DNA from: Candidatus Zixiibacteriota bacterium
GTDB taxonomy: Bacteria > Zixibacteria > MSB-5A5 > SM23-73-2
Direction of reading: 5' to 3'
Assembly (NCBI GenBank): GCA_049642665.1
Contig: JBARPA010000329.1
Location: 1-34,577, forward strand
DNA length: 34,577 nucleotides
Positions 1,321 through 26,924 of the stretch are shown here, piece after piece (the stretch's first letter is position 1; the number at the start of each line of letters is the position of its first letter). The translations under genes were made by a program, and so were the position numbers. The notes beneath the pieces were generated by a model that saw only the letters and a list, made by a program, of their open reading frames with translations, was not told the origin of the DNA and made no database searches.

Positions 1321-1335
1321 CTCAATTGACATCAC

Positions 1336-1460
1336 CTTAGGTCTGGAGACCCAGGGCTACCCGGACTCAGTCTTTTAAACGCGGGAGTTAAGTCATAATT
1401 CAAAAGCAAAGAATAAAGAGAGGTATATGTGACATATTCGAATATAAACAAGTTAGGCGC
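1336..1460 (+). repeat. Structured repeat, type E3: P hairpin, second hairpin, A-rich linker, AT palindrome, ending in GTTAGGC
   Basis: P module GGTCTGGAGACCCAGGGCTACCC lies at 1340-1362. CTACCCGG...CGCGGG forms the second hairpin, ATATTCGAATAT is the palindrome, and the element ends ATAAACAAGTTAGGCG with GTTAGGC at 1452-1458. It is homologous to copies at 4729-4890, 6681-6772 and 11221-11340. Confidence 0.85.
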
Positions 1461-1484
1461 AATGCGTAATTTGGAGATTAAAAA

Positions 1485-1883
1485 ATGAGGATATACATAA
1501 CCCATTGTTCTGGAAAGAAAGACGATTCGTTAAAACATACTGGTAAGAAAGTAACTCCAGATAAGTTGTATACCGGAAGTACAACTCAACCTTTCATGAA
1601 TAGATGTAAAGAGAAGCAGGTTAAATGGGCAATTTTCTCAGATTTATATGGTGTTTGGTTTCCAAATGTAGAACATGAATGGTATGACAAACACCCCGAT
1701 ACAGTTACTGAGCAGGAATTCGAGAATCTCGTAGACGATTTTGACCAAAAACTTCGGGAATATGATGAAATTTGGTTTTATTACAAGCCTAGACGTTTTC
1801 ATCGTTTGTATGAGAAGTTATTACAGGGAACCAACCTAAAAGATAAAGTAAAACGATTTACTTGTATCGACGAGATTGTTTAG
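1485..1883 (+). CDS. DUF6884-like hypothetical protein
   Basis: A GGAG motif lies 8 nt upstream of the ATG. MRIYITHCSGKK...KLYTGSTTQPF...WAIFSDLYGVWFPN..EWYD follows my recollection of the DUF6884 pattern (ISCSxxK...ELYxGxxF...ILSAxxGLxxP...xPYD). This was not checked against a database. Confidence 0.5.
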   Translation: MRIYITHCSGKKDDSLKHTGKKVTPDKLYTGSTTQPFMNRCKEKQVKWAIFSDLYGVWFPNVEHEWYDKHPDTVTEQEFENLVDDFDQKLREYDEIWFYYKPRRFHRLYEKLLQGTNLKDKVKRFTCIDEIV

Positions 1884-1894
1884 GTGTAATAAGA

Positions 1895-2608
1895 ATGTCT
1901 GAACTATGTAAATGGCTAAATGAAGGATTGGAACAGCTACCCCTCATTAAATTCCCTTTCAAATTGGAACAATTACCTCAGAAAGGTATATATTTCTTCT
2001 ATGAAAAAGGTGAAATATGGGCCCATGGTCGGGATAACCCAAGAATAGTTAGAATTGGCACACATAAAAACAGAAATTTTAGAAGTCGTATCAAAGAACA
2101 TTTTCTTTTGGATGAATCAAAAATGGGCTTTGATAAGGATAAGCCTAAACCTTCTGATCGAAGCATTTTCAGGAAAAATATCGGCAGGGCATTGCTGAAC
2201 AGAGATAGAGATGACTACCTACAAGTTTGGAAGATAGATTTCATGACACGAGGAAAGAGGGAGTGTTTAGGACATAAACGAGATATAGACAAGGAAAAAA
2301 GAATAGAATCAACAATTACAAGAATCCTTAGAGAAAGATTTTCTTTTAGATTTATTGTGATAGAAAGTCAAACGGAGAGGATGGGAAGCAAAGGACTTGA
2401 AAGTTCTCTTATTGGAACAGTATCGCATTGCAAATTATGTACGCCATCTAATGGCTGGTTAGGACATTTTTCACCTCAGAAACGGATCAAGAATAGTGGC
2501 TTATGGTTAGTCCAACATATAGATTCTGAAGGAATAAATAACCAACATAAGAAAATCATTTCAGATACTATCACGAGAACAAAAGAATGGATTATGAACA
2601 GCAGATAA
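1895..2608 (+). CDS. GIY-YIG nuclease superfamily protein
   Basis: KGIYFFYEKGE..(x13)..IVRIGTH..RSRIKEHF matches GIY-(x10-15)-YIG plus the conserved Arg, and LESSLIG supplies a later conserved Glu. I prefer the ATG at 1895 (AGGTG 8 nt upstream) to the TTG at 1862 in the ORF track. The gene follows the previous stop by 11 nt, so the two are probably co-transcribed. Confidence 0.6.
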   Translation: MSELCKWLNEGLEQLPLIKFPFKLEQLPQKGIYFFYEKGEIWAHGRDNPRIVRIGTHKNRNFRSRIKEHFLLDESKMGFDKDKPKPSDRSIFRKNIGRALLNRDRDDYLQVWKIDFMTRGKRECLGHKRDIDKEKRIESTITRILRERFSFRFIVIESQTERMGSKGLESSLIGTVSHCKLCTPSNGWLGHFSPQKRIKNSGLWLVQHIDSEGINNQHKKIISDTITRTKEWIMNSR

Positions 2609-2784
2609 CACAGCATATACGCTTCTGGCTATGGCTCTTGCCCTTCGAGACGTTGCTCCCTTCAGTCGCAATGTGGTATGTGCTACTTCCGTTAAGTAAA
2701 ATGGAAGAGAAACGATGAATAGAAAAATGATAGAGGATGCAAAACAATCATATTCGCTTATAAACGAGTTTTACGCAATATGCG
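2603..2784 (+). repeat. Mosaic repeat cluster: attC-like element B1, a 5' fragment of module M1, and the 3' end of module M4
   Basis: B1 spans 2603-2697 (AGATAAC...GTTAAGT). AGCATATAC (2612-2620) pairs with GTATGTGCT (2676-2684). M1 (AAAATGGAAGAG..GATGCAAAACAATC, 2698-2749) is joined abruptly to ATATTCGCTTATAAACGAGTTTTACGCAATATGCG, which matches 1434-1466. Confidence 0.8.
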
Positions 2785-2829
2785 TTTGTAGTTGGCAATC
2801 TCAATATGAAATCAGGAGCATATTAGGAT

Positions 2830-4536
2830 ATGGGAATACCTTTACTAAGTGACATTGTCATCGTACTTGGGCTGTCCATTGTAGTACTCTTCGTATGCAG
2901 TCACCTTCGAATACCCACAATTGTGGGATTTTTCCTGACCGGGATGCTGGCAGGGCCTCACGGACTGGGATTGATAAAAGCGGTTCACGAAGTTGAAATC
3001 TTAGCTGAAATCGGGATTGTGTTGTTGCTTTTTACTATTGGAATGGAGTTCTCACTTAAAAACCTGTTGCGCATCAAGAAATCGATCTTGATGGGCGGAT
3101 CGCTTCAGGTGTGGCTAACTTTTTTAGCTGTTTTTGTCATAGCTATGAAACTCGGTCAGTCCTTTAGTGAATCGATATTTTTAGGATTTCTTATATCGCT
3201 CAGCAGCACGGCAATTGTGCTCAAAGTCATCCAGCAAAGAGCAGAGGTTGATAGTCCTTATGGAAGTACTACTCTTGGCATCTTGATTTACCAGGATGTC
3301 ATTATTGTTCCCATGATGCTCTTTACGCCTCTTTTGGTTGGGGCGACAGCCAATTATGGCGTATCCCCTCTTATTCTTCTGATCAAAGGAGTAGGAATCA
3401 TCGCTTTTGTGATTGTCAGTTCTAAATGGATTGTGCCACAGGTATTGTATCAAATTGCAAGAACGCGCAACCGTGAACTATTTCTACTGAGTGTTGTCAT
3501 AATATGCTTTGGCTTTGCCTGGCTGTTCTCCAGTGCAGGATTGTCCCTGGCATTGGGTGCATTTTTAGCAGGATTGATCATATCTGAATCTGAATACGCT
3601 CATCAGGCACTTGGCAATATTTTACCCCTCCGCGATATCTCTATGAGTTTCTTTTTCATCTCCATTGGAATGCTTCTGGACGTCGGTTTTCTATTCCAGC
3701 ACCCGGGTCTCATTGTGCTGATTGCTTTAGGAGTCCTGGCATTAAAGACCTTCATCGCTGGCTTCGCAGCTACTTTATTAGGATTTCCATTTCGTACTGT
3801 AGTTTTGGTTGGTCTGGCACTCAGTCAGGTCGGTGAATTTTCTTTCATTCTCTCTAAGACCGGTATTGAATTTGGTTTACTTGCTGGGGATACTTATCAG
3901 ATGTTTCTGGCTGTCTCTGTGCTGACCATGGCATTAACACCAGTGATCATAGCTTTTGCGCCCCGGACCGCTGATTTTGTCTTGCAGTTACCAATGCCGG
4001 CAAGGTTAAGAACGGGTTTCTCTCCTGTGCAAGAGGTGAAGTTGCCGCGCAAAAAAGATCACCTGGTCATCATTGGATTTGGATTTAACGGAAGGAATCT
4101 GGCGCGGGCTGCCAAGGTAAGGGGTATTCCCTACTCTATTATTGAAATGAATCCTGAGACGGTGAGGGAAGAAAAAATAAAAGGTGAACCAATCCATTAT
4201 GGCGACGCAACCCATAAAGCGGTACTTGGGCGCGCAGACATCAAAGATGCGAGGGTTGCGGTTGTGGCCATCTCTGACCCCGCGGCAACTCGCAGGATTG
4301 TTGAGCTGGTTCGGAAAGTCAACCCCGGGATTTATGTTATAGTGCGAACTCGTTTTATCCAGGAAGTTAAAAGCCTGCGCAGGTTAGGGGCAGATGAAGT
4401 TATTCCCGAGGAATTCGAGACCTCGGTAGAGATCTTTGCACGGGTTCTGGAGAAGTATCTTGTCCCAAGAGATGAGATCGACAAATATATCGATGAAATA
4501 AGATCAGAGGACTACGATATGCTTGGGCCCAGATAA
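2830..4536 (+). CDS. Monovalent cation:proton antiporter, CPA2 family (KefB/YbaL-like), with a C-terminal TrkA-N/RCK domain
   Basis: About 11-12 hydrophobic helices with a Na_H_Exchanger-like N-terminus (MGIPLLSDIVIVLGLS..GFFLTGMLAGPHGLGLI). A Rossmann-type HLVIIGFGFNGRNLARAA..IIEMNP motif sits in the C-terminal third. Confidence 0.85.
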   Translation: MGIPLLSDIVIVLGLSIVVLFVCSHLRIPTIVGFFLTGMLAGPHGLGLIKAVHEVEILAEIGIVLLLFTIGMEFSLKNLLRIKKSILMGGSLQVWLTFLAVFVIAMKLGQSFSESIFLGFLISLSSTAIVLKVIQQRAEVDSPYGSTTLGILIYQDVIIVPMMLFTPLLVGATANYGVSPLILLIKGVGIIAFVIVSSKWIVPQVLYQIARTRNRELFLLSVVIICFGFAWLFSSAGLSLALGAFLAGLIISESEYAHQALGNILPLRDISMSFFFISIGMLLDVGFLFQHPGLIVLIALGVLALKTFIAGFAATLLGFPFRTVVLVGLALSQVGEFSFILSKTGIEFGLLAGDTYQMFLAVSVLTMALTPVIIAFAPRTADFVLQLPMPARLRTGFSPVQEVKLPRKKDHLVIIGFGFNGRNLARAAKVRGIPYSIIEMNPETVREEKIKGEPIHYGDATHKAVLGRADIKDARVAVVAISDPAATRRIVELVRKVNPGIYVIVRTRFIQEVKSLRRLGADEVIPEEFETSVEIFARVLEKYLVPRDEIDKYIDEIRSEDYDMLGPR

Positions 4537-4545
4537 ATTGCCAAA

Positions 4546-4893
4546 GTTGCGAGGATGCAAAACAATCGATAGCAACACGTCTCCTGAGTGAAAAATCAGG
4601 CTTCGGGGTCAGGAGACCAGGGGCTACCCATATATGTACCAGATATATAGAGAGTTCTGAAAAAATGAAAGGACCGGTCGGGCAAGGTGCCCGGCCTACG
4701 AAAAATGAATGATTTTGTGCATTCTGCCCCCTGGGTCAGGAGACCCAGGGCTACCCGGATTTAATCTCTTAGACGCGGGAGGTAAGTCATAATTCGACAC
4801 CAAAGAATAAACAGACGTATATGCGATATGGTCGCATATCTTCCCAATTTGGCAGTACATCCCACACGTTTGGATATAAACAAGTTAGGCGAA
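4546..4893 (+). repeat. Mosaic repeat cluster: M1 3' fragment, then E2 (P plus GC hairpin), then E3
   Basis: GTTGCGA at 4546-4552 is followed by GGATGCAAAACAATCGATAGC..TCTCCTGAGTGAAAAATCAGGC (M1). One P copy lies at 4605-4629. An AT palindrome follows, then hairpin GGTCGGGCA-AGG-TGCCCGGCC (4676-4696) followed by TACG. A second P copy has a perfect 9-bp stem, CCCTGGGTC-AGGA-GACCCAGGG (4729-4750), followed by CTACCC. Then come M3/M4, with ATATGCGA..TCGCATAT, ending in GTTAGGC at 4884-4890. Confidence 0.85.
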
Positions 4894-4944
4894 ATTTATG
4901 AATCGCATCTAGAAGAGCTTATACAAAGAAAGTGAAAGGTAAAT

Positions 4945-6396
4945 ATGAAAGCCCTAATAATTGCTGCAGGACAAGGAAGCAGGCTAAATGATTCAACCAA
5001 AGGTAACCCCAAATCACTAATTAAACTTTTAGGTTTATCCTTGATTGAAAGAGTAATCCTAACTGCAAAACAAGCTGATGTTGACGAATTTGTAATAGTC
5101 GTCGGCTATCTCGGAGAAAAAATAAAAGAGAAATTAGGCGGTGGAAATAAGTATGGGGTAAAGATAGCTTACATTGAAAATAGAGAATGGCAAAGAGGAA
5201 ATGGGGTTTCTGTGTTGAAAGCTAAAGAATTGTTAAATGAAAATTTTGTTCTGTTGATGTCAGACCATATTTTTGATTATCGCATTCTTAGAAAACTCAT
5301 CGATTATGACACAAAGAGTTCAGTGGTTTTAGCTGTTGACAGGAGAAAATCCCTACCGGGGGACACGAAAGTTCTAGAAAAAGAGGGGAATATTGTTGAT
5401 ATTGGCAAGAATATAGAAAAATCAAACTGTATAGATATTGGTATCTTCTTGTTTTCACCAAAAATATTTTCGTATATTGGAGAATCTGTAAAAGAAGGCA
5501 AGACTGAACTTGCAGATGCTATTCATAAAGCTGCTCAGAACAGAGATGCCCAAATATTCGACATCACGAAAATTAACAGCTATATCCCGAGTATGCGCAA
5601 GGAGATTAAAGCTTTCTGGATGGATATTGATACAAAGCAGGATCTAATCGAAGCAAAGAAGATTTTGATTGAGAATTCTTGTAAAGGAAGAAATGACTTA
5701 CTTGCAACCTATGTCAACAAGCCAATAGAAAATTTCATTGTAAGCAGATTGGTAAACACGCGGATTACACCAAACCGGGTTACCATACTAATAAACATAG
5801 TTGCTTATACATCCACATTTTGTTTCCTCAAAGGGCATCTATTATTTGCTTCCCTCCTCACCTTTGTCGTTTCATTTATGGACGGTGTGGACGGAAAACT
5901 CTCAAGAGTGAAATTATCTTTTTCAAATATTGGAAAAATGGAGCACGCATTTGATTACCTATTTGAACACTCGTGGTATATAGCATTGGCAATCTGTTTA
6001 TCAAATACATTTGGAACAATACCGGTTTTACTTAGCACATTCATACTTCTCTTCGATGGGTTTTCTATGAAATGTGGAAGTGCATTTGGAAAAGGGATCA
6101 AAAATCGTCCACTTCAAGATTATGGACGAATTGAACAACTATTTAGAAAATTTGATGGTAGAAAGAACAGTTATATAATCCTTATCTTAATAGGTGTTTT
6201 GCTAAATGTGCCTTTCTGGTCATTAGTTGCCATATTTGTATGGTCATTAGTCAGTGCTATATTTTATTCTTCGAGAACTATAAAACATCTCCATTATATG
6301 GATCGTAAGAAACATGAACAAAAATTTGGGGATTCAAAAACTCTTCGCAACTCTTCGAGTTACTCGGTACTACCGCGCTCGCCTGACAGCGGATAA
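4945..6396 (+). CDS. Bifunctional sugar-phosphate nucleotidyltransferase / CDP-alcohol phosphatidyltransferase (IPCT/DIPPS-like architecture)
   Basis: The N-terminus MKALIIAAGQGSRL is an NTP_transferase G-loop. The C-terminal half is membrane-embedded and carries DGVDGKLSR(x8)G, the first half of the CDP-alcohol transferase signature. The last ~5 codons run into repeat element B2, which starts at 6381. Confidence 0.7.
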   Translation: MKALIIAAGQGSRLNDSTKGNPKSLIKLLGLSLIERVILTAKQADVDEFVIVVGYLGEKIKEKLGGGNKYGVKIAYIENREWQRGNGVSVLKAKELLNENFVLLMSDHIFDYRILRKLIDYDTKSSVVLAVDRRKSLPGDTKVLEKEGNIVDIGKNIEKSNCIDIGIFLFSPKIFSYIGESVKEGKTELADAIHKAAQNRDAQIFDITKINSYIPSMRKEIKAFWMDIDTKQDLIEAKKILIENSCKGRNDLLATYVNKPIENFIVSRLVNTRITPNRVTILINIVAYTSTFCFLKGHLLFASLLTFVVSFMDGVDGKLSRVKLSFSNIGKMEHAFDYLFEHSWYIALAICLSNTFGTIPVLLSTFILLFDGFSMKCGSAFGKGIKNRPLQDYGRIEQLFRKFDGRKNSYIILILIGVLLNVPFWSLVAIFVWSLVSAIFYSSRTIKHLHYMDRKKHEQKFGDSKTLRNSSSYSVLPRSPDSG

Positions 6397-6772
6397 AAGG
6401 CTGCGGTGCTACGCACCTTTGCCCAAATCCAACGTTACGGCTGGACTTCGGATACGCTTGCAAGGTCAAGTAAAATGGAAGAAAAAGGAGGAATAGAAAA
6501 ATGATAGAGGATGCAAGAGAATGGATACTAAGATGTCTCCTGAGTGAAAAAGTAGGCTAATGGGTCTGGAAACCCAGGGCTACCCGTATATGCACCAGAT
6601 ATAAAGGGAGTTCTGAAAAAATGAAAGGACCGGTCGAGCAAGGTGCCCAACCTACGAAGAGTCAATGATTTACATTACTAATGGGTACCGCGATTTAATC
6701 TTTTAGACGCAGGAAGTAGTCGTAATTCAAAAGCAAAGAATAAAGAGAGGTATAGACGAAATTTTGTTTGGC
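6381..6772 (+). repeat. Mosaic repeat cluster: attC-like B2, full M1, E2, then an E3 whose P module is internally deleted
   Basis: B2 spans 6381-6471 (GCCTGAC...GTCAAGT). M1 spans 6472-6560, and P lies at 6561-6585. The GC hairpin at 6632-6652 has two mismatches. Then CTAATGGGTACCGCGATTTAATC (6679-6700) is a P copy lacking 16 nt. M3 follows, and the cluster ends in GTTTGGC at 6766-6772. Confidence 0.8.
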
Positions 6773-6803
6773 AACTCCAAAACCTGAAAAAAGGAGGCAA
6801 AAA

Positions 6804-8501
6804 ATGAGAAGCATTGAGAGAAAACTTGTAACGGTAACCTGGATAGTGCTGCTGGTGGCAGGTTTTCTCGGTTCAGCCACTGCGCAGGTAGCAACGGAAC
6901 CTGTAGGGGTAGTAGTAAATATGGAAAAGGCTTCAGAAAAAAGGTTTTCTGTTACCGTCGACCCACGAATTGAACTGTTGGCTGTGGTTCAACATTTTAC
7001 CTCCTGGGCCCCGGGATGGCATATAAAGAGCATGACTGCATATAAGGAAGATATAGACAATTATTTTGGTAAATTCAAGGAGCATCCGGTGATAACCCTT
7101 GCCGAAAGTTTATTTTATGCTGATTTTACCTGCGATGCGCCGGTTTCGTTCATGCTCTACCTTGGGGATCCTCCGGAGCTTGTTCAAAAAACTCAGTACT
7201 CGGGCTACCTGATTAAAAGAGCCAAAGGCGTGAAACATTTGGAAGAATTCGCTGATGCGCTCAGGGATTTTGCCAAAAAGACAGACTTTGTGAAATTCTA
7301 CCGGGCTCATAAGGCTTTATATGACACTCTGGTGGCAGAGGTGGATTCGTTGTTTGAAGGGAAAGACTACGTTGGGGTGATTGAGGATTTTTATGGTGAA
7401 TCGAGAAACAGCTATAACCTTATCCTCTCTCCTTTGTTTGGAACAGGAGGTGGCTATTCCCATACAATAAAGACCAATGAAGGATATGATCTTTTCGCTG
7501 TACTTGGCCCTTGTTCGCTCAAAGGCAAGCGAACGACTTTTGCCTGTCCCAATTTTGAAAGTATAATGCTGCACGAATGGAGCCATCATTTTGTCAATCC
7601 TCTGGTAGACCAAAACTTTGATATCTTTACGAAATCTACTGGCCTGTTTGAACCCATCAAAGAAATGATGCAAAGACAGCAGTATCCCGATTGGAAAGTT
7701 GCCCTTTACGAGCACATTGTGCGTGCCTGTGCTGAGATTCATCTTCTGGCCAAATTTCACAGAGATTTCAAAAAGGAGGAAGCCCTGGAATACCACGAGG
7801 GAAAGGGGTTCTGGTACATCAGCTATATTGACAGTTTGCTGGGCGTGTATGATACCCACAGAAAGGAATATCCAACTTTCGGTAAATTTGTGCCGGTGAT
7901 TGCCACAGGACTCAGCCAGATCTCCGTTGAAGATCTACCGGAAAGATTAACTGCCTTTGCAGGACCTCTAAGTGCTATCTTCTCCCGCACCGATAGCATC
8001 CATCTCATATATCCTACTGACATTGATGAGGAGTTGGCAAACAAGGTTAAAAAAGACCTGGAAAACTTTGCCGCATTTCTCTCTTCGGCAAGAATAGAGC
8101 CTGTGCTTATAAGCGATAAAGAGGCTATAAAGATAGATTGGCAGGATAAAGTTGGTTTCATTTACGGCAATCCAGGGGACAACCTGTTTTTAAGAGAACT
8201 TAAAATCGCAATTCCATTGAGGTTTCGTGAAAACGCCTTAGAATTTGGAGGAAAAAGATATGAAGGTGAGGGAATGATTTTGATCTCCTGCATGCCCAAT
8301 CCATTTAATAAAAAGCTACCTTTTGCTATCATGACTGCAAACAGGCCAGAAGATCTTATCGGAGCCGGTTCGAAAATCAGCAGTCCAGGCGAGTGGAACG
8401 CAGATTACGTAATCTTTCGTGGTGAGGAGAAATTGGATGGCGGATTGTACCACAAAGAAAAAGGCAAATGGTCTCTGATTGCGGGTGAGAAGCAAAATTG
8501 A
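6804..8501 (+). CDS. Secreted putative zinc metallopeptidase (HEXXH motif; DUF4932-like)
   Basis: I prefer the ATG at 6804, with AGGAGG 6 nt upstream, to the TTG at 6768. The signal peptide is MRSIERKLVTVTWIVLLVAGFLGSATAQ. The motif IMLHEWSHHF is HEXXH. The DUF4932 assignment is from memory only. Confidence 0.6.
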   Translation: MRSIERKLVTVTWIVLLVAGFLGSATAQVATEPVGVVVNMEKASEKRFSVTVDPRIELLAVVQHFTSWAPGWHIKSMTAYKEDIDNYFGKFKEHPVITLAESLFYADFTCDAPVSFMLYLGDPPELVQKTQYSGYLIKRAKGVKHLEEFADALRDFAKKTDFVKFYRAHKALYDTLVAEVDSLFEGKDYVGVIEDFYGESRNSYNLILSPLFGTGGGYSHTIKTNEGYDLFAVLGPCSLKGKRTTFACPNFESIMLHEWSHHFVNPLVDQNFDIFTKSTGLFEPIKEMMQRQQYPDWKVALYEHIVRACAEIHLLAKFHRDFKKEEALEYHEGKGFWYISYIDSLLGVYDTHRKEYPTFGKFVPVIATGLSQISVEDLPERLTAFAGPLSAIFSRTDSIHLIYPTDIDEELANKVKKDLENFAAFLSSARIEPVLISDKEAIKIDWQDKVGFIYGNPGDNLFLRELKIAIPLRFRENALEFGGKRYEGEGMILISCMPNPFNKKLPFAIMTANRPEDLIGAGSKISSPGEWNADYVIFRGEEKLDGGLYHKEKGKWSLIAGEKQN

Positions 8502-8507
8502 GAGAGA

Positions 8508-8666
8508 GTTAAGCAGGCCCTGGGTCGGTAGACCCGGGGTTACCCATATATAGACAAGATATCTATAGAGCTCTCAACGGATGTAAAATTATGGTCGGGC
8601 AAGGTGCCCGACCTACGAAGAATAGATGATTTATATTACCGTAGGCAGGGCTCCCCAGCCCTGCTA
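8508..8666 (+). repeat. Repeat cluster: GTTAAGC, P, the E2 GC hairpin, and one inverted REP-like hairpin
   Basis: GTTAAGC lies at 8508-8514. P is CCCTGGGTC-GGTA-GACCCGGGG followed by TTACCC (8518-8545). The perfect hairpin GGTCGGGCA-AGG-TGCCCGACC (8593-8613) is followed by TACG. Then comes GTAG (8641-8644) followed by GCAGGGCT-CCCC-AGCCCTGC, which has the opposite polarity. Confidence 0.8.
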
Positions 8667-8759
8667 AACGAGATTTGGATGGTGATCAGGGAAATAACCG
8701 AATCATGCGACATTTTGAAGTCAAATATTATCTATCTTATGTGTGAGGTATGAAAAACT

Positions 8760-9491
8760 ATGGATTTTTCTAATGTTTATGAGGATGGTAAGCGTGCGGA
8801 GTCATACGCCAAACTTGAATTTCCGGGGACTTATTACTTAGCATACAGGGATATACCTGAAATTGTTCTTAAACACGTTAAAGGAAGAAAAACAATAGAC
8901 TTCGGATGCGGAACAGGAAGATCAACAAGATTTCTTAAAAAATGCGGATTTGATGCGGTCGGTATCGATATCTCAAAGGATATGATAAAAAAGGCAAAAG
9001 AACTTGACCCTGATGGTGATTACCGATTGAATGTAGATGATGATTTTAAACAATTTGAAAAGCATCACTATGATTTGATTTTATCGGTATTTACTTTTGA
9101 CAATATTCCAGATGTTGAAAAAAGAATAAAACTGCTTAAAGGACTTAGCAATTTGCTAAATAAAGAAGGCAGGATAATTCTTATTAATTCAACTCCCGAA
9201 ATCTATATAAATGAATGGTCATCCTTTTCCACTAAGGACTTTCCGGAGAATAGAAAGGCAAAAAGCGGGGAAAAAGTGAAAATCGTAATGACAGACGTGG
9301 AAGACAAAAGACCAGTAGAAGATATTGTATGGTTTAATGAAGATTATTCAGAATTATTTGCCAGGACTGGATTAGAATTAATCGAATCACATAAACCTTT
9401 AGCCAAGGACGATGAACCATACGAATGGATTAATGAAACAAAAATCGCACCCTGGATTATTTATGTATTAAAAAAGGGGATCGCCCAATAA
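8760..9491 (+). CDS. Class I SAM-dependent methyltransferase
   Basis: Motif I is IDFGCGTGRSTRFL, and the post-I acidic residue is in VGIDIS. The length of 243 aa is typical of the Methyltransf_11/25 families. Confidence 0.8.
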   Translation: MDFSNVYEDGKRAESYAKLEFPGTYYLAYRDIPEIVLKHVKGRKTIDFGCGTGRSTRFLKKCGFDAVGIDISKDMIKKAKELDPDGDYRLNVDDDFKQFEKHHYDLILSVFTFDNIPDVEKRIKLLKGLSNLLNKEGRIILINSTPEIYINEWSSFSTKDFPENRKAKSGEKVKIVMTDVEDKRPVEDIVWFNEDYSELFARTGLELIESHKPLAKDDEPYEWINETKIAPWIIYVLKKGIAQ

Positions 9492-9497
9492 TGTCCA

Positions 9498-9583
9498 AAA
9501 CAGCGTATATGCGATATAGACGAATGTTTACAAACTTTTCACAATATTCGACATACTCTAATATGAACGAGTCAGACAAAATG
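9498..9583 (+). repeat. M4-type repeat fragment (3' part of E3 only)
   Basis: AACAGCGTATATGCGATATAG matches 4810-4830 (AACAGACGTATATGCGATATGG). The end ATATGAACGAGTCAGACAAAAT matches ATATAAACAAGTTAGGCGAAAT. GTCAGAC lies at 9571-9577. Confidence 0.6.
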
Positions 9584-9646
9584 CTCACTACGGACAAAGG
9601 TTATCTAAAATAACAAAAAGTGTTTTTATTGCAAAAGAGGTTCAAA

Positions 9647-10645
9647 ATGAAGACTTTATGGCTCATTCTGATCGTACTGGTTGCCATAGCTGTTTTGATT
9701 TTGGCGCTGACCTACCCGGGCTATCAAAGTGAAATGCAGGCAGCGCGTGACGGGTTGTTATTGAATAGCGAAATAATGCATACAGACCTTGGTGATATTG
9801 AATATTCGATGAAGGGGGAAGGTTCACCGATCCTTTTGCTCCACGGTGCCGGGGGCGGTTATGACCAGGGGCTCTGGCTTGGCAAGGTAAGCCTTGGGGA
9901 TGGTTATAAATTCATCTCGGTTTCTCGGTTTGGTTATCTTCGCTCGCCAGTTCCTGAGAATGCTTCGATCAAAAAACAGGTTGCGCTATACCTTGCTCTT
10001 CTTGACAATCTGAACATAGAGAGAGTTCTTGTCGTCGCGGGCTCAGCTGGAGGCCCCTCAGCCTTGCAGTTTGTTCATGAATATCCTGACCGATGTTCGG
10101 CATTGATACTATTTTCCGCCCGAAGTATGTTTCAGGCACCAGGTGATAAAGAGATGTTTTACGTTAACATCATTCATCTCATCCAGCAATCTGATTTTGC
10201 ATACTGGCTCTTCGCCAAGTTTTTCCAATCTGTAATTCTGGAGCTTATGGGAATTCCTACTGAAGTATACAAGAGTTTTACTCCGGAACAGAAAGAACTG
10301 GCTCAGGAGATGCTGGATATGATGCATCCCATGAGTCAAAGGTACAAGGGGACGATACACGATGGGGAAATGGTCCTGCTTGATAGTGTGTCTATGAGCG
10401 AGATATCTGCGCCTATACTGATAATACACAGCAAAGACGATGCACTGGTGAGCTACGAGCACGCTGAGTACGTTCATAAAAACATTAAACAATCGAAACT
10501 GATACTTTTCGACACAGGCGGACATGTAATGCTATCTCAAATGAATGAAGTCAGGCAATACGTAAAAACATTCTTGCGCGATATCTTAAAATCAAATACA
10601 TCAATACTGTTTTATTCTGAAACAAAAATAGTACCCCTTTACTGA
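9647..10645 (+). CDS. Alpha/beta-fold hydrolase with an N-terminal membrane anchor
   Basis: LLLHGAGGG forms the oxyanion region. VVAGSAGGPSA is a GxSxG-type nucleophile elbow. HSKDD and GGH are the Asp and His regions. The ATG at 9647 (AGAGG 7 nt upstream) is preferred to the GTG at 9620. Confidence 0.8.
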   Translation: MKTLWLILIVLVAIAVLILALTYPGYQSEMQAARDGLLLNSEIMHTDLGDIEYSMKGEGSPILLLHGAGGGYDQGLWLGKVSLGDGYKFISVSRFGYLRSPVPENASIKKQVALYLALLDNLNIERVLVVAGSAGGPSALQFVHEYPDRCSALILFSARSMFQAPGDKEMFYVNIIHLIQQSDFAYWLFAKFFQSVILELMGIPTEVYKSFTPEQKELAQEMLDMMHPMSQRYKGTIHDGEMVLLDSVSMSEISAPILIIHSKDDALVSYEHAEYVHKNIKQSKLILFDTGGHVMLSQMNEVRQYVKTFLRDILKSNTSILFYSETKIVPLY

Positions 10646-10705
10646 AGCATCGACGTAAATTTGACACAGAGCGCAAAGTAATTGAAAGGAGATAAGTAGA
10701 TTCAG

Positions 10706-11200
10706 ATGGTAATCAGGGAAATGAGTGAGGGGGACATAGGAGCCTGTGTTGACCTTTCTAATCGAGTGAGAAGGGAATCCTGGGAGAAGTTTGAAAAGGA
10801 GCTTTATCCCCAGTATCTTTTTGAGGAGGAGCTGAAACAATATTCTGATGAGACTCTGTCTCGCTTTATCAAAAGTGATAATTCCTTTGCCTTTGTGAGC
10901 GTGGATAAATCTGAGGTGATGGGTCTGGCTATGGGTAGGGTGAACGAAGGCGGACTTGTGGATTTGTCCTGGATATGCGTTGATCCTTTAGCTCGAGGCA
11001 AGGGAATCGGAAAGAAGTTGATAAACAAAGTCGTAGAATATTCAAAAAGCAAAGGCTGCCATAAGATTTTTGCCTATACTTTTCCCGCTATTGCTCCCAC
11101 GGTCAGTTTTTATCTGAGATGTGGATTTGTGCCTGAAGCATATTTTAGAAAGCACTGGTATGGACTGGATTTTGTGATGATGAGCAAATGGCTGGAATAA
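10706..11200 (+). CDS. GNAT family N-acetyltransferase
   Basis: Acetyl-CoA motif A is ICVDPLARGKGIGKKLI. The size (164 aa) and C-terminal GF..E are typical. No repeat separates it from the hydrolase gene, so the two form one unit. Confidence 0.8.
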   Translation: MVIREMSEGDIGACVDLSNRVRRESWEKFEKELYPQYLFEEELKQYSDETLSRFIKSDNSFAFVSVDKSEVMGLAMGRVNEGGLVDLSWICVDPLARGKGIGKKLINKVVEYSKSKGCHKIFAYTFPAIAPTVSFYLRCGFVPEAYFRKHWYGLDFVMMSKWLE

Positions 11201-11220
11201 AAAATTAGATTTTATGATTG

Positions 11221-11340
11221 CCCTGGGTCTGGAGACCCAGAACTACCCAGATATAATTCTTTAAACACTGGGTGTAGTCATAATTCAAAAACAGAGAATA
11301 AAGAGACCTATATTAGAGATATCCGGATATAAGCAGGTGA
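11221..11340 (+). repeat. Structured repeat, type E3 (diverged copy)
   Basis: P is CCCTGGGTC-TGGA-GACCCAG followed by AACTACCC (11221-11248). The second hairpin, CTACCCAG..CTGGGTGTAG, carries a compensated G:C to A:T change relative to other copies. It also has the AATAAAGAGA linker and the ATATCCGGATAT palindrome. Confidence 0.8.
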
Positions 11341-11346
11341 TGTTCA

Positions 11347-11802
11347 ATGCAATTTTTCAAGTTGTCAGATTATTCAAAGGAGACAAAAGCTCACGGTCTG
11401 GCGTGGATATCACTGAGTGTGGCTATTGGCATCCACGTATTTGATGAAGCCATTACCGACTTTCTCTCTTTCTACAATCGTTTTGTGGATTCGATACGGC
11501 AGCACGCTCCATTCCTGCCACTGCCAACATTTACCTATGGAGTATGGCTGGCTGGTTTAATCGTTGGAATCATCATCTTACTTTGCCTAAGCCCTCTTGT
11601 CTTTCGTAGCAACCGATGGATGTTTCTGGTATCTTATCTGTTAGGGACGATTATGATCGTAAATGCAGTAGCTCATATGGCAGGATCTGTCATCATGGGA
11701 GGACCTATGCCAGGAGTCTATTCGTCATTTCTATTGCTTGCCACAGCCGTTTTTTTGATAATTAATGCTCGGAAACATCAATTAAAATCGAGGCTCTGTT
11801 AA
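11347..11802 (+). CDS. Integral membrane protein of unknown function (about 4 TM helices; HxxEE-like HVFDE motif)
   Basis: Four hydrophobic segments. The motif IHVFDEAITDF resembles the HXXEE-domain family, which I recall from memory with low certainty. Confidence 0.55.
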   Translation: MQFFKLSDYSKETKAHGLAWISLSVAIGIHVFDEAITDFLSFYNRFVDSIRQHAPFLPLPTFTYGVWLAGLIVGIIILLCLSPLVFRSNRWMFLVSYLLGTIMIVNAVAHMAGSVIMGGPMPGVYSSFLLLATAVFLIINARKHQLKSRLC

Positions 11803-11849
11803 GAATCCTTCTAACACATAAATGGAGATTAATATTCCGGAGATTTTAA

Positions 11850-11969
11850 ATGAAGACTAATAAAAGTAGGAGTAATAAGTACATAATTCGTAATCTGGCG
11901 ATTCTGGGTATGACCCTTTCTCTGGCCGAGGCTATTGGAGTTAAGATTTGGTTTTCGCCCGGCATTTGA
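11850..11969 (+). CDS. Possible 39-aa small membrane peptide (absent from the ORF track)
   Basis: ATG at 11850 with GGAGA 6 nt upstream. The peptide is MKTNKSRSNKYIIRNLAILGMTLSLAEAIGVKIWFSPGI, with a basic N-terminus and one hydrophobic stretch. Stop TGA at 11967-11969. There is no other support. Confidence 0.25.
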   Translation: MKTNKSRSNKYIIRNLAILGMTLSLAEAIGVKIWFSPGI

Positions 11970-11977
11970 CACCGAAT

Positions 11978-12030
11978 CCTGGGTCGGGAGACCCAGGGCT
12001 ACCCGGATTTAAGCTTTTAAATGCAGGGAG
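11978..12030 (+). repeat. Truncated E3 repeat (P plus the start of M3)
   Basis: CCTGGGTC-GGGA-GACCCAGG followed by GCTACCC (11978-12004), then GGATTTAAGCTTTTAAATGCAGGG containing the stem ATTTAA/TTAAAT. It is fused directly to the ribosome-binding region of the next gene. Confidence 0.8.
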
Positions 12031-12038
12031 ACGAGGAA

Positions 12039-12509
12039 ATGAAAGACAAAAAAGATTTAATTGCCTACTGCGGGCTTTATTGTGGTACCTGTAGTTTCAA
12101 GGTTGCATATGAGGAAAAAGATCATAAACACCTGCAGGATATGCCCTCAAAATATGATAAATATAAGGATGCTGAATTGCAATTCTGTCCTGGCTGCAGA
12201 TTAGATGCTCAATCCGGTGGATGCAAAATACGAGAATGTGCTATGAGTAAGGATATCCCTCATTGCGGTGAATGTGATGAATTCCCCTGCGAATCATTAA
12301 TCGAATTCAATAATGATGGCATGCCGCATCATTCGGATTCAATTAACAATTTAAGAAAGTTGAGGAATAAAGGAGAAGAATCCTGGCTGGCCTATCAGGC
12401 AAAGAGATGGGAATGTGAATGTGGTGCTAAACTATCCTGGTATTTAAAAAAATGCACAAAATGCTTGAAGCCAGTTAAAATAAGCTTTACAATAAATGAA
12501 AAAAAGTAA
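12039..12509 (+). CDS. DUF3795 domain protein (Cys-rich, putative Zn/Fe-S binding)
   Basis: MKDKKDLIAYCGLYCGTC...CPGC...CKIRECA...CGECDEFPC matches the DUF3795 Cys pattern. I prefer the ATG at 12039, because the track start at 12021 lies inside the repeat and the paralog begins at the homologous MKDK. Confidence 0.75.
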   Translation: MKDKKDLIAYCGLYCGTCSFKVAYEEKDHKHLQDMPSKYDKYKDAELQFCPGCRLDAQSGGCKIRECAMSKDIPHCGECDEFPCESLIEFNNDGMPHHSDSINNLRKLRNKGEESWLAYQAKRWECECGAKLSWYLKKCTKCLKPVKISFTINEKK

Positions 12510-12559
12510 CCTTGTAAAGACATTTTATGTTAAATAAAAATAGACAAGGAAACAAGAAG

Positions 12560-13012
12560 ATGAAAGATAAACAGGAATTACTTGCATATTGCGGGCTTTA
12601 TTGCGGCGATTGTTTAGGTTACACCGGTTTACTCGCCAAGAGGGCAAAAAGCTTAATGACGGTGCTGGAGAAACATCAGTTTGATCGAACTGCAAAAACT
12701 GTGTTTCCCAAGGAGCTTAAAGAGTATGATAGATTTCATCAGATGCTGGGATTTATGACCGGTTTGAAATGCCCTAAAATCTGCAGGGAAAGGAAAGACA
12801 ATGAAACATCCTGCGAGATCAGGAAATGCTGCATAGATAAGGACATTTATGCCTGTTATGAGTGCGAAGATTTTGAGACCTGTGACAAGCTCAAGTCATT
12901 TATGAAGGGGCTTCATTTTGATTCCTGCGTGAGGAATCTGAAAGCTATTAAGGAAATGGGGCTGGATGCCTGGATAAAAAAGGGCAAAAAAGTCTGGTAC
13001 TGGAATGAGTAA
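12560..13012 (+). CDS. DUF3795 domain protein (tandem paralog)
   Basis: MKDKQELLAYCGLYCGDC...CPKIC...CEIRKCC...CYECEDFETC. The start at 12560 was chosen by homology with the upstream paralog. The track start is 12527. Confidence 0.7.
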   Translation: MKDKQELLAYCGLYCGDCLGYTGLLAKRAKSLMTVLEKHQFDRTAKTVFPKELKEYDRFHQMLGFMTGLKCPKICRERKDNETSCEIRKCCIDKDIYACYECEDFETCDKLKSFMKGLHFDSCVRNLKAIKEMGLDAWIKKGKKVWYWNE

Positions 13013-13226
13013 ATGATTGCTCATATTTCAACGGGAACCGAAAATCTGCCTTCGATTCGCTTTTTGCCGTGGCCTTAGCTCGGTCACACCAGAGTGGATA
13101 AAGGAGAAATCCAAGATTTCTCCAAATTGTCTTCTGTGATTTGCTTTATGCTGGAAACGTCAGACGCAACCTGCCTACGGGTCGCCTTTGGGGAAGTTCA
13201 ATAAATACATTTGAAAGACTGATCTT

Positions 13227-13994
13227 ATGGGTGTGAGAATGAAACAGATTGATGTTAAGAAAAGAATTAGGAAACTTCTTTTGAGAGCCAGAGAAATCTC
13301 CAGAGAGAAAGGAATTTACTCCGTTGTTCGTTCTGGAGTTAAAATAACTGTCAATTGGTTAGTAAACTATCTTTGCTATTGTTACTATCGAAAAATCAAA
13401 TGGGCAGAGATCTTTACATTCCAAGGGAAAACCTATCGTTATTTCTATCATAGATATAATCATACCTGGAAAAACGAAAGAGCAGTCGAAATCCCCATTA
13501 TTTGGGCATATTTGAAAAAATATCATGCAAGGAGAACTCTTGAAGTAGGTAACGTTCTCTCACATTATTTCCGTGTTAATCACGATATTATAGACAAATA
13601 TGAGAAGGCGGATGGTGTAATTAATAAAGATATTGTTGATTTCAAGCCTCTTAAGAAATATGATTTAATCGTTAGCATTTCAACCTTAGAACACGTTGGC
13701 TGGGATGAAAATCCACGAGAACCCGTTAAAATTCTTCATGCTATTGAGAACTTTAAAAATCTTCTTTCTCCTGGTGGCACAGCAATTGCCACAGTACCAT
13801 TAGGTTATAACTCTGAAATGGATGAGCTCTTAAAAGAGAGGAAGACAAAATTCACCAAACAATACTACCTGAAACGAATCACCAAAAACAATAAATGGAT
13901 AGAAGCAGGTTGGGATGATGTTTGTGATGCGAAATATGGAGAGCCTTTTCCCAACGCAAGCGCATTGGTTATCGGTATCATTGTAAGAAAATGA
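13227..13994 (+). CDS. SAM-methyltransferase-like protein (degenerate motif I)
   Basis: LEVGNV.. (a weak motif I), DIVDF, YDLIVSISTLEHVG and LLSPGGTAIATVP follow the class I methyltransferase order. The start is uncertain (13227 or 13239). Confidence 0.5.
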   Translation: MGVRMKQIDVKKRIRKLLLRAREISREKGIYSVVRSGVKITVNWLVNYLCYCYYRKIKWAEIFTFQGKTYRYFYHRYNHTWKNERAVEIPIIWAYLKKYHARRTLEVGNVLSHYFRVNHDIIDKYEKADGVINKDIVDFKPLKKYDLIVSISTLEHVGWDENPREPVKILHAIENFKNLLSPGGTAIATVPLGYNSEMDELLKERKTKFTKQYYLKRITKNNKWIEAGWDDVCDAKYGEPFPNASALVIGIIVRK

Positions 13995-14269
13995 TTTGGC
14001 GACCCTTTCGGCAGACTTTTCGGAGTACCTGGCAGTCCTCGACTCCATCGGGAGCGTACAACACGGGCTATAACTCCACTTCGTTCGCACCAATGGGCCT
14101 ACGCCAACTTGGTACAGCCTGAAAACGTTAGGTAAAATGGAAGAAGAAAAAGGAATAGAAAGATGATAGAAGATGCAGAACAATGGATAGCAATGGGTCT
14201 TCTGAGGGAAAAAGCAGCCTAACGGGTCTGGAGAACCAGGGCTGCCCGGATTTAAAGCTTAAGTTATGC
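13995..14269 (+). repeat. Mosaic repeat cluster: B3, full M1, P, and a truncated M3
   Basis: B3 ends GGTACAGCCTGAAAACGTTAGGT, with GTTAGGT at 14127-14133. M1 spans 14134-14223 and ends in a perfect inverse-core-like GCCTAAC (14217-14223). P lies at 14224-14247. GGATTTAAAGCTTAA is followed by GTTATGC (14263-14269), which overlaps the ATG of the next gene. Confidence 0.8.
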
Positions 14270-14889
14270 TGGAAAACCTGTATTTAAAAGGCAAAGGAGT
14301 GATAATACGAGATCTGAAAAGGGGGGATATTGACGAAAGATTAAAATGGAAACCATATCCTGATCCATTGTATTATCATTATAATCGACCTCCTTTGTCT
14401 AAGGTTGAAAAGGAACTGTGGTATATGAGAAAAAGAGAGGACCCGAATTTGGTATATCTTTCTGTTGATAATTTGAAAGGTGATCTGATCGGCTTTTTGT
14501 TGCTTTACAAAATCGACAAAAAGGCTAGAGCCTCCTGGATGGGCATTTATCTGGGATATGAATACATTGACCAGGGATATGGTACCGATGCCCTTCAAAC
14601 TATGATGAAGTATTACTTTGAGGAATTGGATTATGAGAAACTGTTTCTGGATGTTGCAACTTTGAACAAAAGAGCCATCCGATGCTATGAGAAATGTGGA
14701 TTCAAACATTTAAGAACCAAATTCAATCTTCACGATCCCCGAACCCAAATTGATGTATTCTCAAATGATAGATTTAAAAATGTGAGAAAGTATTTCAGGA
14801 AAAAAGGAAAAGACATTTTAGTACAATTTGAGGAGATGGTGATAACCAGGGAGATGTGGCTGAACAGGAAAGGGTGTCCCAACGGATGA
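14266..14889 (+). CDS. GNAT family N-acetyltransferase (RimJ/RimL-like)
   Basis: An Acetyltransf_3-like layout: IIRDLKRGDID, MGIYLGYEYIDQGYGTDAL and NKRAIRCYEKCGFKH. Confidence 0.8.
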   Translation: MLENLYLKGKGVIIRDLKRGDIDERLKWKPYPDPLYYHYNRPPLSKVEKELWYMRKREDPNLVYLSVDNLKGDLIGFLLLYKIDKKARASWMGIYLGYEYIDQGYGTDALQTMMKYYFEELDYEKLFLDVATLNKRAIRCYEKCGFKHLRTKFNLHDPRTQIDVFSNDRFKNVRKYFRKKGKDILVQFEEMVITREMWLNRKGCPNG

Positions 14890-14944
14890 AACGGAATTTT
14901 CAATTTCATTATTGTTGTTTCTGCTTTTAGGAGTTGTATATTAA

Positions 14945-14973: not shown

Positions 14974-14996
14974 TAGAAAAGATTAGAAGCTTTGCC

Positions 14997-24659: not shown

Positions 24660-24682
24660 GTTATAATGGAGGAATGTAGTTG

Positions 24683-24758
24683 CTCGATTTATCGAGTATA
24701 TTTGTAGTTTGCCAATTTATCGTCATAAAACCAGCCCAATGAATTGGGCAACTACAAC
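24683..24758. repeat. About 75-bp hairpin-forming element, copy A (direct repeat with 26570-26644)
   Basis: CTCGATTTATCGAGTATATTTGTAGTTTGCCAATTTATCG..CCCAATGAATTGGGCAACTACAA. Internal arms GTAGTTTGCCAATT and AATTGGGCAACTAC form an inverted repeat. By eye it is about 85% identical to copy B. Confidence 0.75.
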
Positions 24759-24845: not shown

Positions 24846-24973
24846 GTAGCACAGGTTGTCTCAACCTGTATTTTTCTCACACCTATTTGAAAGAAAGGGT
24901 AGGGCAAGGTCTCCTGACCTTGTCGTAGGTACCCCTCGAATCCAGTTGGTTGGGCAATTGGATTTGCCCAACC
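24846..24973 (+). repeat. Cluster of REP-like hairpins, each preceded by GTAG; diverged homologs of the array's P and E2 hairpins in the opposite orientation
   Basis: GTAG (24846-24849), C, then ACAGGTTG-tct-CAACCTGT followed by ATTTTT. GTAG (24899-24902) followed by GGCAAGGTC-tcct-GACCTTGTC. GTAG (24925-24928) followed by GGTTGGGCAA-ttggat-TTGCCCAACC (24948-24973). On the minus strand, CAAGGTCAGGAGACCTTGCCCTACCC aligns with P (CTGGGTCAGGAGACCCAGGGCTACCC) with two compensated pair changes. Confidence 0.7.
24851..24875 (+). terminator. Possible intrinsic terminator for the DUF1847 gene (the first REP-like hairpin)
   Basis: The 8-bp stem ACAGGTTG/CAACCTGT has a 3-nt loop and is followed by ATTTTT. 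It lies 190 nt past the stop codon. Confidence 0.4.
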
Positions 24974-26820: not shown

Positions 26821-26852
26821 CAAAAGGGCGGACCAGGGAAGTCCGCCCCTAC
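26821..26852 (-). terminator. REP-like hairpin and distal tandem terminator downstream of the fumarase genes
   Basis: On the minus strand: GTAG, GGGCGGAC-ttccctg-GTCCGCCC, then TTTTG. On the plus strand: GGGCGGAC at 26826-26833, GTCCGCCC at 26841-26848, CTAC at 26849-26852. Confidence 0.55.
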
Positions 26853-26887
26853 ATTTTCATGTCAACTAACGACAAATTACTAATTCC

Positions 26888-26924
26888 TAAAAACAAAAAG
26901 GGCGGAGACAAGCTCCGCCCCTAC
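26888..26924 (-). terminator. REP-like hairpin and intrinsic terminator downstream of the fumarase beta-subunit gene
   Basis: On the minus strand: GTAG, GGGCGGAG-cttgt-CTCCGCCC, then TTTTTGTTTTTAG. It begins 38 nt after the stop codon at 26962. Confidence 0.7.

Follow-up and report, generated by a model that had tools for sequence, protein, structure and literature searches.

We identified a family of short, tagged hairpins in a 34,577-nt contig of an uncultured Candidatus Zixiibacteriota bacterium (JBARPA010000329.1 of assembly GCA_049642665.1, the whole of which is called the window here). The principal element, hairpin P, is under selection as a hairpin, is strand-asymmetric and carries at one end the tetranucleotide CTAC, which reads GTAG on the other strand and is the tag of a super-family of repetitive extragenic palindromes (REPs). 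The elements lie directly behind stop codons and point in the same direction as the upstream gene, and the CTAC tag is common to several unrelated stems both inside and outside a hypervariable accessory island (1321-14270) whose genes are all co-oriented. By their structure they qualify as GTAG-tagged REP-like palindromes, but they do not look like a classical REP family. An earlier note on this sequence had proposed the REP signature, and our analysis supports a REP-like family of tagged hairpins that has a new host lineage and an unusual arrangement. The explanation that we prefer, with confidence that is no better than even, is that these are lineage-specific GTAG-tagged REP-like hairpins that act as transcribed punctuation behind stop codons and provide recombination homology for the island.

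Copies and covariation of hairpin P

Hairpin P has the form CCCTGGGTC-NGGA-GACCCAGGG-CTACCC, in which a 9-bp stem and a 4-nt loop make up a 22-nt hairpin, and eight copies, all on the + strand, are found within 1335-14249. Matches to the search pattern GGGTCNGGAGACCCAGGGCTACCC with up to three mismatches start at 1339, 4606, 4733, 6562, 8522, 11225, 11981 and 14224, and none was obtained in 100 shuffles. Pattern searches and repeat families confirmed the eight copies of P, a collapsed copy, three copies of a second hairpin and an inverted third hairpin where the earlier note had placed them. We aligned 23 copies of P from the window and six related loci (related loci are given L numbers below), and a covariance model built from this alignment was used on the window and its relatives. 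Sense copies scored 32-50 bits compared with at most 14 bits for antisense copies, and the window contained nine copies in its 34.6 kb, eight of them within one 13-kb array. The model recovered no copies beyond the known ones in the window or close relatives, and no match to the P family in the distant relatives L017, L019 and L020, whose GNAT acetyltransferase is 54-60% identical.

Most copies of P start 0-20 nt past a stop codon. Copy 1 with its CTACCC tail (1335..1364; 40.8 bits) lies 15 nt past the stop of a 455-aa open reading frame (ORF), copy 5 (8518..8547; 38.4 bits; TTACCC tail) 16 nt past that of the DUF4932 gene, and copy 6 (11221..11250; 44.4 bits) 20 nt past that of the acetyltransferase gene GNAT164. 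Copy 6 forms the left flank of the HXXEE cassette; the right flank is copy 7 (11977..12006; 48.1 bits), which is 7 nt past the stop of a 39-codon ORF. Copy 2 (4602..4631; 37.7 bits) has a 1-nt deletion in its 3' arm and is preceded by a truncated K module (described below), while copy 3 (4729..4758; 49.9 bits) has a perfect 9-bp stem. Copy 4 (6558..6587; 36.4 bits) begins with the TAA that ends the 19-codon ORF of a K module, and the decayed copy 8 (14220..14249; 32.4 bits; CTGCCC tail), just 5' of the terminal GNAT gene, likewise overlaps the stop of the small K ORF. A collapsed P at about 6676..6692 (+ strand) joins AATGGGT directly to ACCGCGATTTAATC (ACCGCG), so that the loop and 3' arm are missing; it is a 66% member of repeat family D1. 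Outside the array, a ninth P known as P2 (GACAAGGTC-agga-GACCTTGCC-CTACCC; 24895..24924, - strand; 38.8 bits) has the loop and tail of P on an entirely different basal stem, and L008 and L011 keep it at the orthologous position. P2 and the neighbouring tagged hairpins occupy a convergent spacer. Every copy of P has the orientation of the upstream gene, including P2 on the - strand.

The nearly invariant parts of P are the four apical GGTC/GACC pairs, the NGGA loop and the CTACCC tail. In contrast, the five basal pairs covary: CCCTG/CAGGG is the common version, GGCAA/TTGCC is that of P2 (window, L008 and L011) and GGATG/CATC(C/G) occurs in L007 and L009, so that the stems CCCTGGGTC, GGCAAGGTC (P2) and GGATGGGTC (L007 and L009) each have a matching 3' arm. 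Across the alignment 88.9% of cells are paired and five of the nine pairs show two-sided change, counts that overstate the number of independent events because the copies are related; the covariation rests on about three independent stem versions. The covariation score was 0.276 compared with 0.129 for shuffled alignments, none of 500 of which reached 0.276, and with at most 0.141 for slid registers. The CTAC tag is on the sense strand in 20 of the 23 aligned copies (TTAC, CTGC and CTAA in the remainder), and the NGGA loop is present in 21, the exceptions being GGTA and AAAA. The claim that structure is conserved in P, and not sequence alone, thus holds.

None of the intrinsic terminators called on the + strand coincided with a copy of P, and no P carries a T-run, while canonical terminators occur elsewhere in the window. 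Since P lacks a U-tract, it would not act as a terminator. We also observed that the junction between the loop and the 3' arm reads GAGACC in every copy (for example at 4741-4746), the reverse complement of GGTCTC. GGTCTC is the recognition sequence of BsaI/Eco31I-type IIS enzymes, and its presence in P is probably a coincidence. A phage origin of P was rejected, as the 18-nt P core was found in none of 2.9 million viral contigs.

Other tagged hairpins and the composite modules

Hairpin 2 (GGTCGGGCAAGGTGCCCGACCTACG) has a 9-bp stem and a 3-nt AGG loop and occurs three times on the + strand, at 4676, 6632 and 8593, where none is expected by chance. The copy at 4676..4700 reads GGTCGGGCA-agg-TGCCCGGCC-TACG, the one at 6632..6656 is decayed, with two mismatches in the stem, and the one at 8593..8617 has a perfect 9-bp stem and is the same element as L011 2-22. 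Hairpin 3 (8641..8664, + strand; GTAG+GCAGGGCT-cccc-AGCCCTGC) has an 8-bp stem, a 4-nt loop and inverted polarity, and a relative of it, CTAG+GCAGGGCT-ccc-AGCCCTGC, is present in the distant locus L017. Four more tagged hairpins were found well to the right of the array. The first, GCCCAAT-ga-ATTGGGC-aa-CTAC (24734..24755, +), lies within a 78-nt direct repeat around the SBBP gene, and the second is ACAGGTTG-aga-CAACCTGT-gCTACC (24851..24875, -). The third, GGGCGGAC-cagggaa-GTCCGCCC-CTAC (26826..26852, +), reads on the - strand as GTAG-hairpin-TTTT, the form of an intrinsic terminator 3' of the fumarase genes, and the fourth, GGGCGGAG-acaag-CTCCGCCC-CTAC (26900..26924, +), reads on the - strand as GTAG-hairpin-TTTTTGTTTT. 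Tagged hairpins with other stems are also found in relatives, as an outward-facing pair in the patatin-ACT spacer of L008, at the end of L006 and several times in L017.

Across the window, CTAC adjoins 9 of 18 GC-rich perfect hairpins, where about 0.6 would be expected per tetramer. It ranks first of 256 tetramers beside GC-rich hairpins, adjoining 6 of 7 inside the array and 5 of 21 outside. Both CTAC and GTAG are under-represented in the sequence overall, and the enrichment of the tag is therefore not compositional. The proposed REP signature of a palindrome abutting GTAG/CTAC is borne out by these counts. Nevertheless, the interval of about 13 kb to which it had been assigned proves too narrow: it contains the array copies, but P2 and the tagged hairpins at 24734-26924 lie beyond it. 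Strict co-orientation with the genes and restriction to the array likewise describe the array copies of P, whereas hairpin 3 is inverted and two other intergenic regions are tagged. Confinement to the array, which the earlier note, in conjunction with a complete genome free of any RAYT (REP-associated transposase), regarded as grounds for abandoning a REP interpretation, is half true of P and not true of the tag.

Two side observations concern this region. The fumarase genes, on the - strand, are followed by two tandem intrinsic terminators with GTAG directly before each, and the orthologous site in L008 has one terminator, likewise preceded by GTAG. At 24948-24973 a 10-bp hairpin (GGTTGGGCAA-ttggat-TTGCCCAACC) resembles hairpin 2 (GGTCGGGCA..TGCCCGACC) with a C:G to T:A exchange; CTAC does not adjoin it, and the end of L006 contains one half of it.

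The spacers of the array are assembled from recurring modules that keep one order and one orientation. Composite blocks recur at 145 nt (three times), 165 nt (twice, 84% identity), 111 nt (twice, 83%) and 75 nt (four times). In the E3 module (4751..4788, +) the P tail CTACCCGG pairs with CGCGGGAGGTAAG over an AT-rich loop, and further + strand copies lie at 1357-1394, 6684-6721, 11243-11279 and 11999-12023. A compensatory change proposed for E3, CCCGG..CGGG against CCCAG..CTGGG (11243/11268), can be seen by eye and hinges on the alignment of GGG runs, but RNAalifold on a MAFFT alignment of six E3 copies gave no consensus helix, which we attribute to shifts of the helix register between copies. 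The M module (1391..1465, +; further + strand copies at 4785-4890, 6718-6760 and 11276-11345; repeat families D3 and D4) reads AGTCATAATTC, a variable AT palindrome and then ATATAAACAAGTTAGGC. Its M4 palindromes, said to form a hairpin in every copy, are indeed present at 1425, 4819 and 11319, but the hairpin is solid at 4819 only; those at 1425 and 11319 have 4-5 A-T pairs, and the latter is absent from the predicted fold.

The K module (6465..6557, +; repeat families D2, D7 and D11) begins with GTYARGTAAAATGGAAG and holds a 19-codon ORF; further + strand copies are at 2691-2748, 4551-4601 (truncated) and 14127-14219. This ORF (MIEDA(R/E)(E/Q)WI...), at 6501-6560, 14163-14222 and from 2725 onward and truncated at 4551, is preceded by a good Shine-Dalgarno sequence, and its TAA stop and the beginning of P overlap. 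The differences between its copies, judged by eye, are mostly non-synonymous, so that it probably encodes no conserved peptide. Neither sigma-70 promoters (the type covered by our promoter scan) nor intrinsic terminators were enriched in the modules. Rfam covariance models gave no match at E<=1 across the entire window, and no tRNA or tmRNA was found in it.

Gene content and turnover of the island

The first 14.9 kb of the window consists of + strand genes of mutually unrelated kinds. They encode the 455-aa ORF, DUF6884, GIY-YIG_3, a Na+/H+ exchanger and an NTP-transferase/CDP-alcohol transferase, and then DUF4932, a methyltransferase, an alpha/beta hydrolase, GNAT, HXXEE, two DUF3795 proteins, another methyltransferase-like protein and another GNAT. 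Core genes bound the island on both sides, with the tRNA synthetase on the left and the GNAT, small Cys protein and ArsR genes on the right. Upstream of the window, the ENA contig L001, which has the same genes, carries polyprenyl synthase, enolase, DivIC, RecO and a class II tRNA synthetase, after which come the 455-aa ORF and the first P. To the right of the array are a terminator, a small Cys-rich ORF, ArsR, patatin, ACT, isochorismatase, RibD_C, two TldD/PmbA genes and DUF1847, followed farther away by a beta-propeller (SBBP) protein, fumarase, ElbB, ClpC, McsB and McsA. In a closed 2.7-Mb relative (ENA ERZ25039515 contig_53747; locus at 283,850-304,506), the interval between the tRNA synthetase and ArsR genes holds hemerythrin and two GNATs and nothing more, which indicates that the array is an accessory island that has expanded at a site conserved in the chromosome. 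We found no integrase in the 8.5 kb before or the 20 kb after the array, and no REP-associated tyrosine transposase (RAYT), Y1 transposase, integrase or other transposase among the ORFs of the window, the 8.5 kb upstream and the called genes of related loci.

Gene content and order in the island vary among relatives. One relative carries the label 'Ignavibacteria' in its source. The order is DUF4932, Na/H exchanger, methyltransferase, GNAT, two DUF3795 and GNAT in L014; DUF4932, methyltransferase, GNAT, HXXEE, two DUF3795 and GNAT in L007; DUF4932, GNAT, two DUF3795 and GNAT in L009; and methyltransferase, small ORF, hydrolase and GNAT in L011. In L005, three genes (DsrE-like by eye, an ABC ATPase and a permease) are inserted between the methyltransferase and GNAT. 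The HXXEE cassette was found in the window and in L007 but not in L005, L009, L011 or L014. These insertions are bracketed by direct repeats whose modules and lengths differ (30 to ~230 nt). HXXEE in the window has P..E3 on each side, the NTP-transferase insertion has a ~230-nt repeat of composition K-P-x-H2-y (4489-4722 / 6445-6678; 84% identity), and the repeat at the L005 insert consists of P, about 55 nt and the first 9 nt of the GNAT gene (ATGGTAATC). The variable breakpoints argue for exchange through repeat homology rather than a fixed crossover. On the other hand, sequence classes diverge directly past CTACCC, and 'half-P' units that begin within the loop recur 3' of different genes, which together leave room for an enzyme acting at P.

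Further signs of turnover were observed around these cassettes. Remnants of the 5' end of GNAT164 (AGATTnnGATGGTrATCAGGGAAAT) lie upstream of the methyltransferase at 8671-8695 in the window, ~70-100 in L011 and ~5300-5330 in L014, and a remnant of its start (ATGGTrATCAGGGAAAT) precedes another cassette at ~4400-4385 (-) in L005. The start of this gene has therefore served repeatedly as an insertion point. The nearly identical loci L005 and L006 differ by a 29-nt deletion in the spacer between P and the DUF3795 start, indicating very recent indel turnover in the modules. Outside the array, the SBBP gene (25115-26473, -) is flanked by 78-nt direct repeats (24680-24757 / 26567-26644; 86% identity) with GTAG-tagged hairpins inside, and as it is missing from the same spacer in L008, we regard it as a second, independent repeat-flanked insertion. 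A nucleotidyltransferase/HEPN pair between patatin and ACT in L011 (6970-7433) is missing in the window (18143-18331). L001 ends at window ~6720 and L002-L004 begin 87 nt upstream of 1485, so that independent assemblies of the same organism break in the repeat modules and short-read metagenome assemblies fragment this island systematically; such islands are probably under-sampled in metagenome-assembled genomes.

Some individual genes and motifs of the island deserve mention. The 455-aa ORF at its left edge (window 22-1320; full length at L001 8469-9836) had no match in Pfam, NCBIfam or PADLOC; its N-terminus, judged by eye, shows a D...(Q)xK pattern (GADIRY...IQIKK) that recalls PD-(D/E)xK nucleases. 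The first cassette (1485-2608) encodes a DUF6884-like protein, with a weak Pfam match under the cut-off, and a GIY-YIG_3 protein that matches the PADLOC candidate defence protein PDC-M57B at E=1e-56; on the strength of this match, the cassette may be a candidate anti-phage system. The 39-codon ORF before copy 7 of P (11850-11969; MKTNKSRSNKYIIRNLAILGMTLSLAEAIGVKIWFSPGI) has its stop 7 nt before that copy and probably encodes a small membrane peptide; in L007, a deletion took its 3' part together with P and E3. A GYGGATAAA motif following a 3-4-bp hairpin occurs at 6378-6386 and 13092-13100 in the window and at ~2130 (-) in L005, in otherwise unique GC-rich stretches 3' of three different genes.

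Known repeat families and alternative explanations

Di Nocera, De Gregorio and Rocco (2013; PMC3733652) described a GTAG super-family of REPs with 6-13 bp stems, short loops and, in most members, an unpaired GTAG tag. According to these authors, sub-families show complementary changes in the stem, several families can share one genome, and the super-family extends over eight phyla; the repeats lie mainly just 3' of ORFs, between unidirectional or convergent genes, and some are grouped with flanking DNA, while the head-to-tail arrangement is rare (PMC3733652). The present elements agree with this description in their GC-rich tagged stem-loops, complementary changes, coexisting families and intergenic positions close behind an ORF. 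P, hairpin 2 and hairpin 3 are each a stem-loop of the expected kind (a 20-40-nt GC-rich palindrome with a 6-13 bp stem), the unpaired GTAG tag is present at one end, P shows compensatory changes among its sub-families, and the elements are intergenic, 3' of ORFs and between unidirectional or convergent genes. They differ in that the tag of P is extended to CTACCC and its NGGA loop is invariant. Zixibacteria are not among the phyla named in the abstract of that paper (PMC3733652), and no paper in the library that we searched linked Zixibacteria with REPs. One clustered family, GTAG-23 of Thermomicrobium roseum, is reported there (PMC3733652), but nothing in its description indicates blocks punctuating an array of accessory genes.

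The elements had also been likened to bacterial interspersed mosaic elements (BIMEs). The resemblance to the BIMEs of Escherichia coli lies in the mosaic of palindromic units and linker motifs and in the recurring composite blocks, and this part of the comparison stands. It fails over orientation. In BIMEs, as outlined by Nunvar et al. (2010) in connection with RAYT-associated REPs (PMC2817692), REPs alternate in opposite orientations, whereas the modules of the window keep one order and one orientation. The inverted pairing of BIMEs and of REPINs (paired, inverted REPs) is not seen here, as eight copies of P and three of hairpin 2 are co-directional and hairpin 3 alone is inverted.

If the hairpins are lineage-specific REP-like elements as we propose, P would be transcribed with the upstream gene as a 3'-untranslated-region or intercistronic hairpin. 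By analogy with what has been proposed for REPs, it might then buffer or uncouple how neighbouring cassettes are expressed; a block to 3'-exonucleases or an influence on the terminating ribosome could, for instance, bring this about. The dispersed direct repeats of 30-230 nt could supply homology for the insertion, deletion and re-ordering of genes in the island. Candidate routes for the initial spread of the elements are a RAYT-like HUH enzyme reading hairpin plus tag, and gene conversion or recombination.

A number of observations weigh against this explanation. Classical REP families comprise tens to hundreds of dispersed copies with a cognate RAYT, whereas P is low-copy and locally clustered (nine in 34.6 kb, eight in one array), its copies in the array all run head-to-tail in the direction of the genes, and no RAYT or Y1 transposase was seen in any examined locus. 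No P is present in ~8.4 kb of core genes upstream. When the exact pattern GGTCNGGARACCCAGGGCTACCC was scanned over 185,579 species genomes and 241 million metagenome records, it matched one stretch of a species genome and two metagenome contigs, all of them the orthologous island of relatives; as this pattern covers only 4 of the 8 array copies (1339, 4733, 6562 and 11981), diverged copies elsewhere would escape the scan. Decay is evident at 14220, at 6632 and in the copies before the terminal GNAT in L005, L011 and L014, so that not all copies are maintained. Mismatches in the stem (13 G.T and 10 A.C) favour neither strand as the functional one, and the RNA-level function of P is purely what we infer. 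Finally, the fixed loop and tail of P suggest a specific binding factor, which our explanation does not name.

In another explanation, the hairpins are RNA regulatory or processing elements for a specific factor, the REP-like tag is coincidental and the repeats arose by local duplication only. The candidate factor would be CsrA-like, with GGA in the loops: the NGGA loop is found in 21 of the 23 copies of P and hairpin 2 has an AGG loop. The constant sense orientation relative to the upstream gene, including that of P2 on the - strand, fits such a role, as does the pairing of the P tail with a downstream G-rich, Shine-Dalgarno-like stretch (E3) directly before the DUF3795 start in L011, L014 and the window (11999). 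However, the usual CsrA hairpin is longer than P, whose 4-nt, C-G-closed loop is short for CsrA, and CTAC also adjoins hairpins whose loops are unrelated, two terminators among them; this sharing of the tag suggests a more general basis than a single RNA-binding site. We consider this explanation unlikely. Somewhat more doubtful still is the idea that copies of P are cut-and-join sites of a hairpin-reading single-strand enzyme encoded elsewhere (HUH/Y1, such as a RAYT or the TnpA of IS200/IS605, or another), so that the segment between two co-oriented copies moves and the island is an integron-like system of gene capture built on REP-type sites rather than attC/IntI. Co-oriented hairpins do flank single genes or small sets whose content and order vary among close relatives, HXXEE is bounded by P on both sides in the window and is present or absent among relatives, and sequences diverge immediately past CTACCC. 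Half-P units after different genes and P-flanked insertions would be the footprints of such an enzyme, and an invariant loop and tail with a free basal stem is what a reader of structure plus tag would be expected to leave. Against this, there is no candidate enzyme in 45 kb of the source genome or in any related locus, the breakpoints are not fixed (flanking repeats of 30 to ~230 nt from different modules), the right edge of one deletion in L007 lacks P, the junction of the Na/H exchanger cassette is within an M module, and P2 and other tagged hairpins stand where no cassette exchange is evident. At the ends of IS200/IS605 insertion sequences, a Y1 HUH transposase recognises co-oriented sub-terminal hairpins together with a short cleavage motif next to them. 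The likeness to this family (PMC6006769) is confined to co-oriented hairpins plus a short flanking motif; tnpA and tnpB are absent, the units between hairpins are varied ordinary cellular genes, and no left and right ends are recognisable.

A degenerate integron cassette array, or cluster of attC sites lacking integron-integrases (CALIN), with the repeats as attC, was the competing interpretation raised in the earlier note, and it is now largely refuted and very improbable. It had in its favour the co-oriented, unrelated accessory genes (GNATs, methyltransferases and DUFs) with similar structured repeats between them, their varying content among relatives, and GTTRRRY-like boxes at module ends (GTTAGGC at 1451 and 4881, GTTAAGT at 2691 and GTTAGGT at 14127). 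These boxes have no partner. In a consensus check of our own making, distinct from the IntegronFinder covariance model, no RYYYAAC...GTTRRRY pair 50-160 nt apart was found on either strand of 1-15000, and the relaxed NNNNAAC...GTTNNNN search for paired R and L boxes gave two hits, one intra-ORF site counted once per strand, where 4.8 were expected. The spacer DNA of candidate stretches folds with z of -1.0 to +0.6, with only the short P, E3 and AT hairpins forming; R''/R' boxes and the 55-140-nt imperfect hairpin are missing, and P, as a perfect 22-nt hairpin, is far below any attC size. Breakpoints do not fall at a fixed position between G and TT, and there is no integrase upstream (enolase, DivIC, RecO, tRNA synthetase) or downstream (ArsR, patatin, ACT and others). 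Based on the folding of both strands, the strict and relaxed box searches, which gave nothing above chance, and the lack of an integrase in the sequences examined, an attC/integron identity was rejected.

In conclusion, REP-type repeats are understood almost entirely from Proteobacteria, as high-copy elements tied to RAYTs, and the same signature is found here in a candidate phylum. The arrangement in Zixibacteria is different: the repeats are low-copy in the sequences examined, co-oriented and placed behind stop codons, and they punctuate an island that is reshuffled between close relatives. If they are only transcribed punctuation and homology, small repeats would organise a hotspot of accessory genes without an integrase. 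If an enzyme acts on the hairpins, REP biology would be linked to the capture of gene cassettes.

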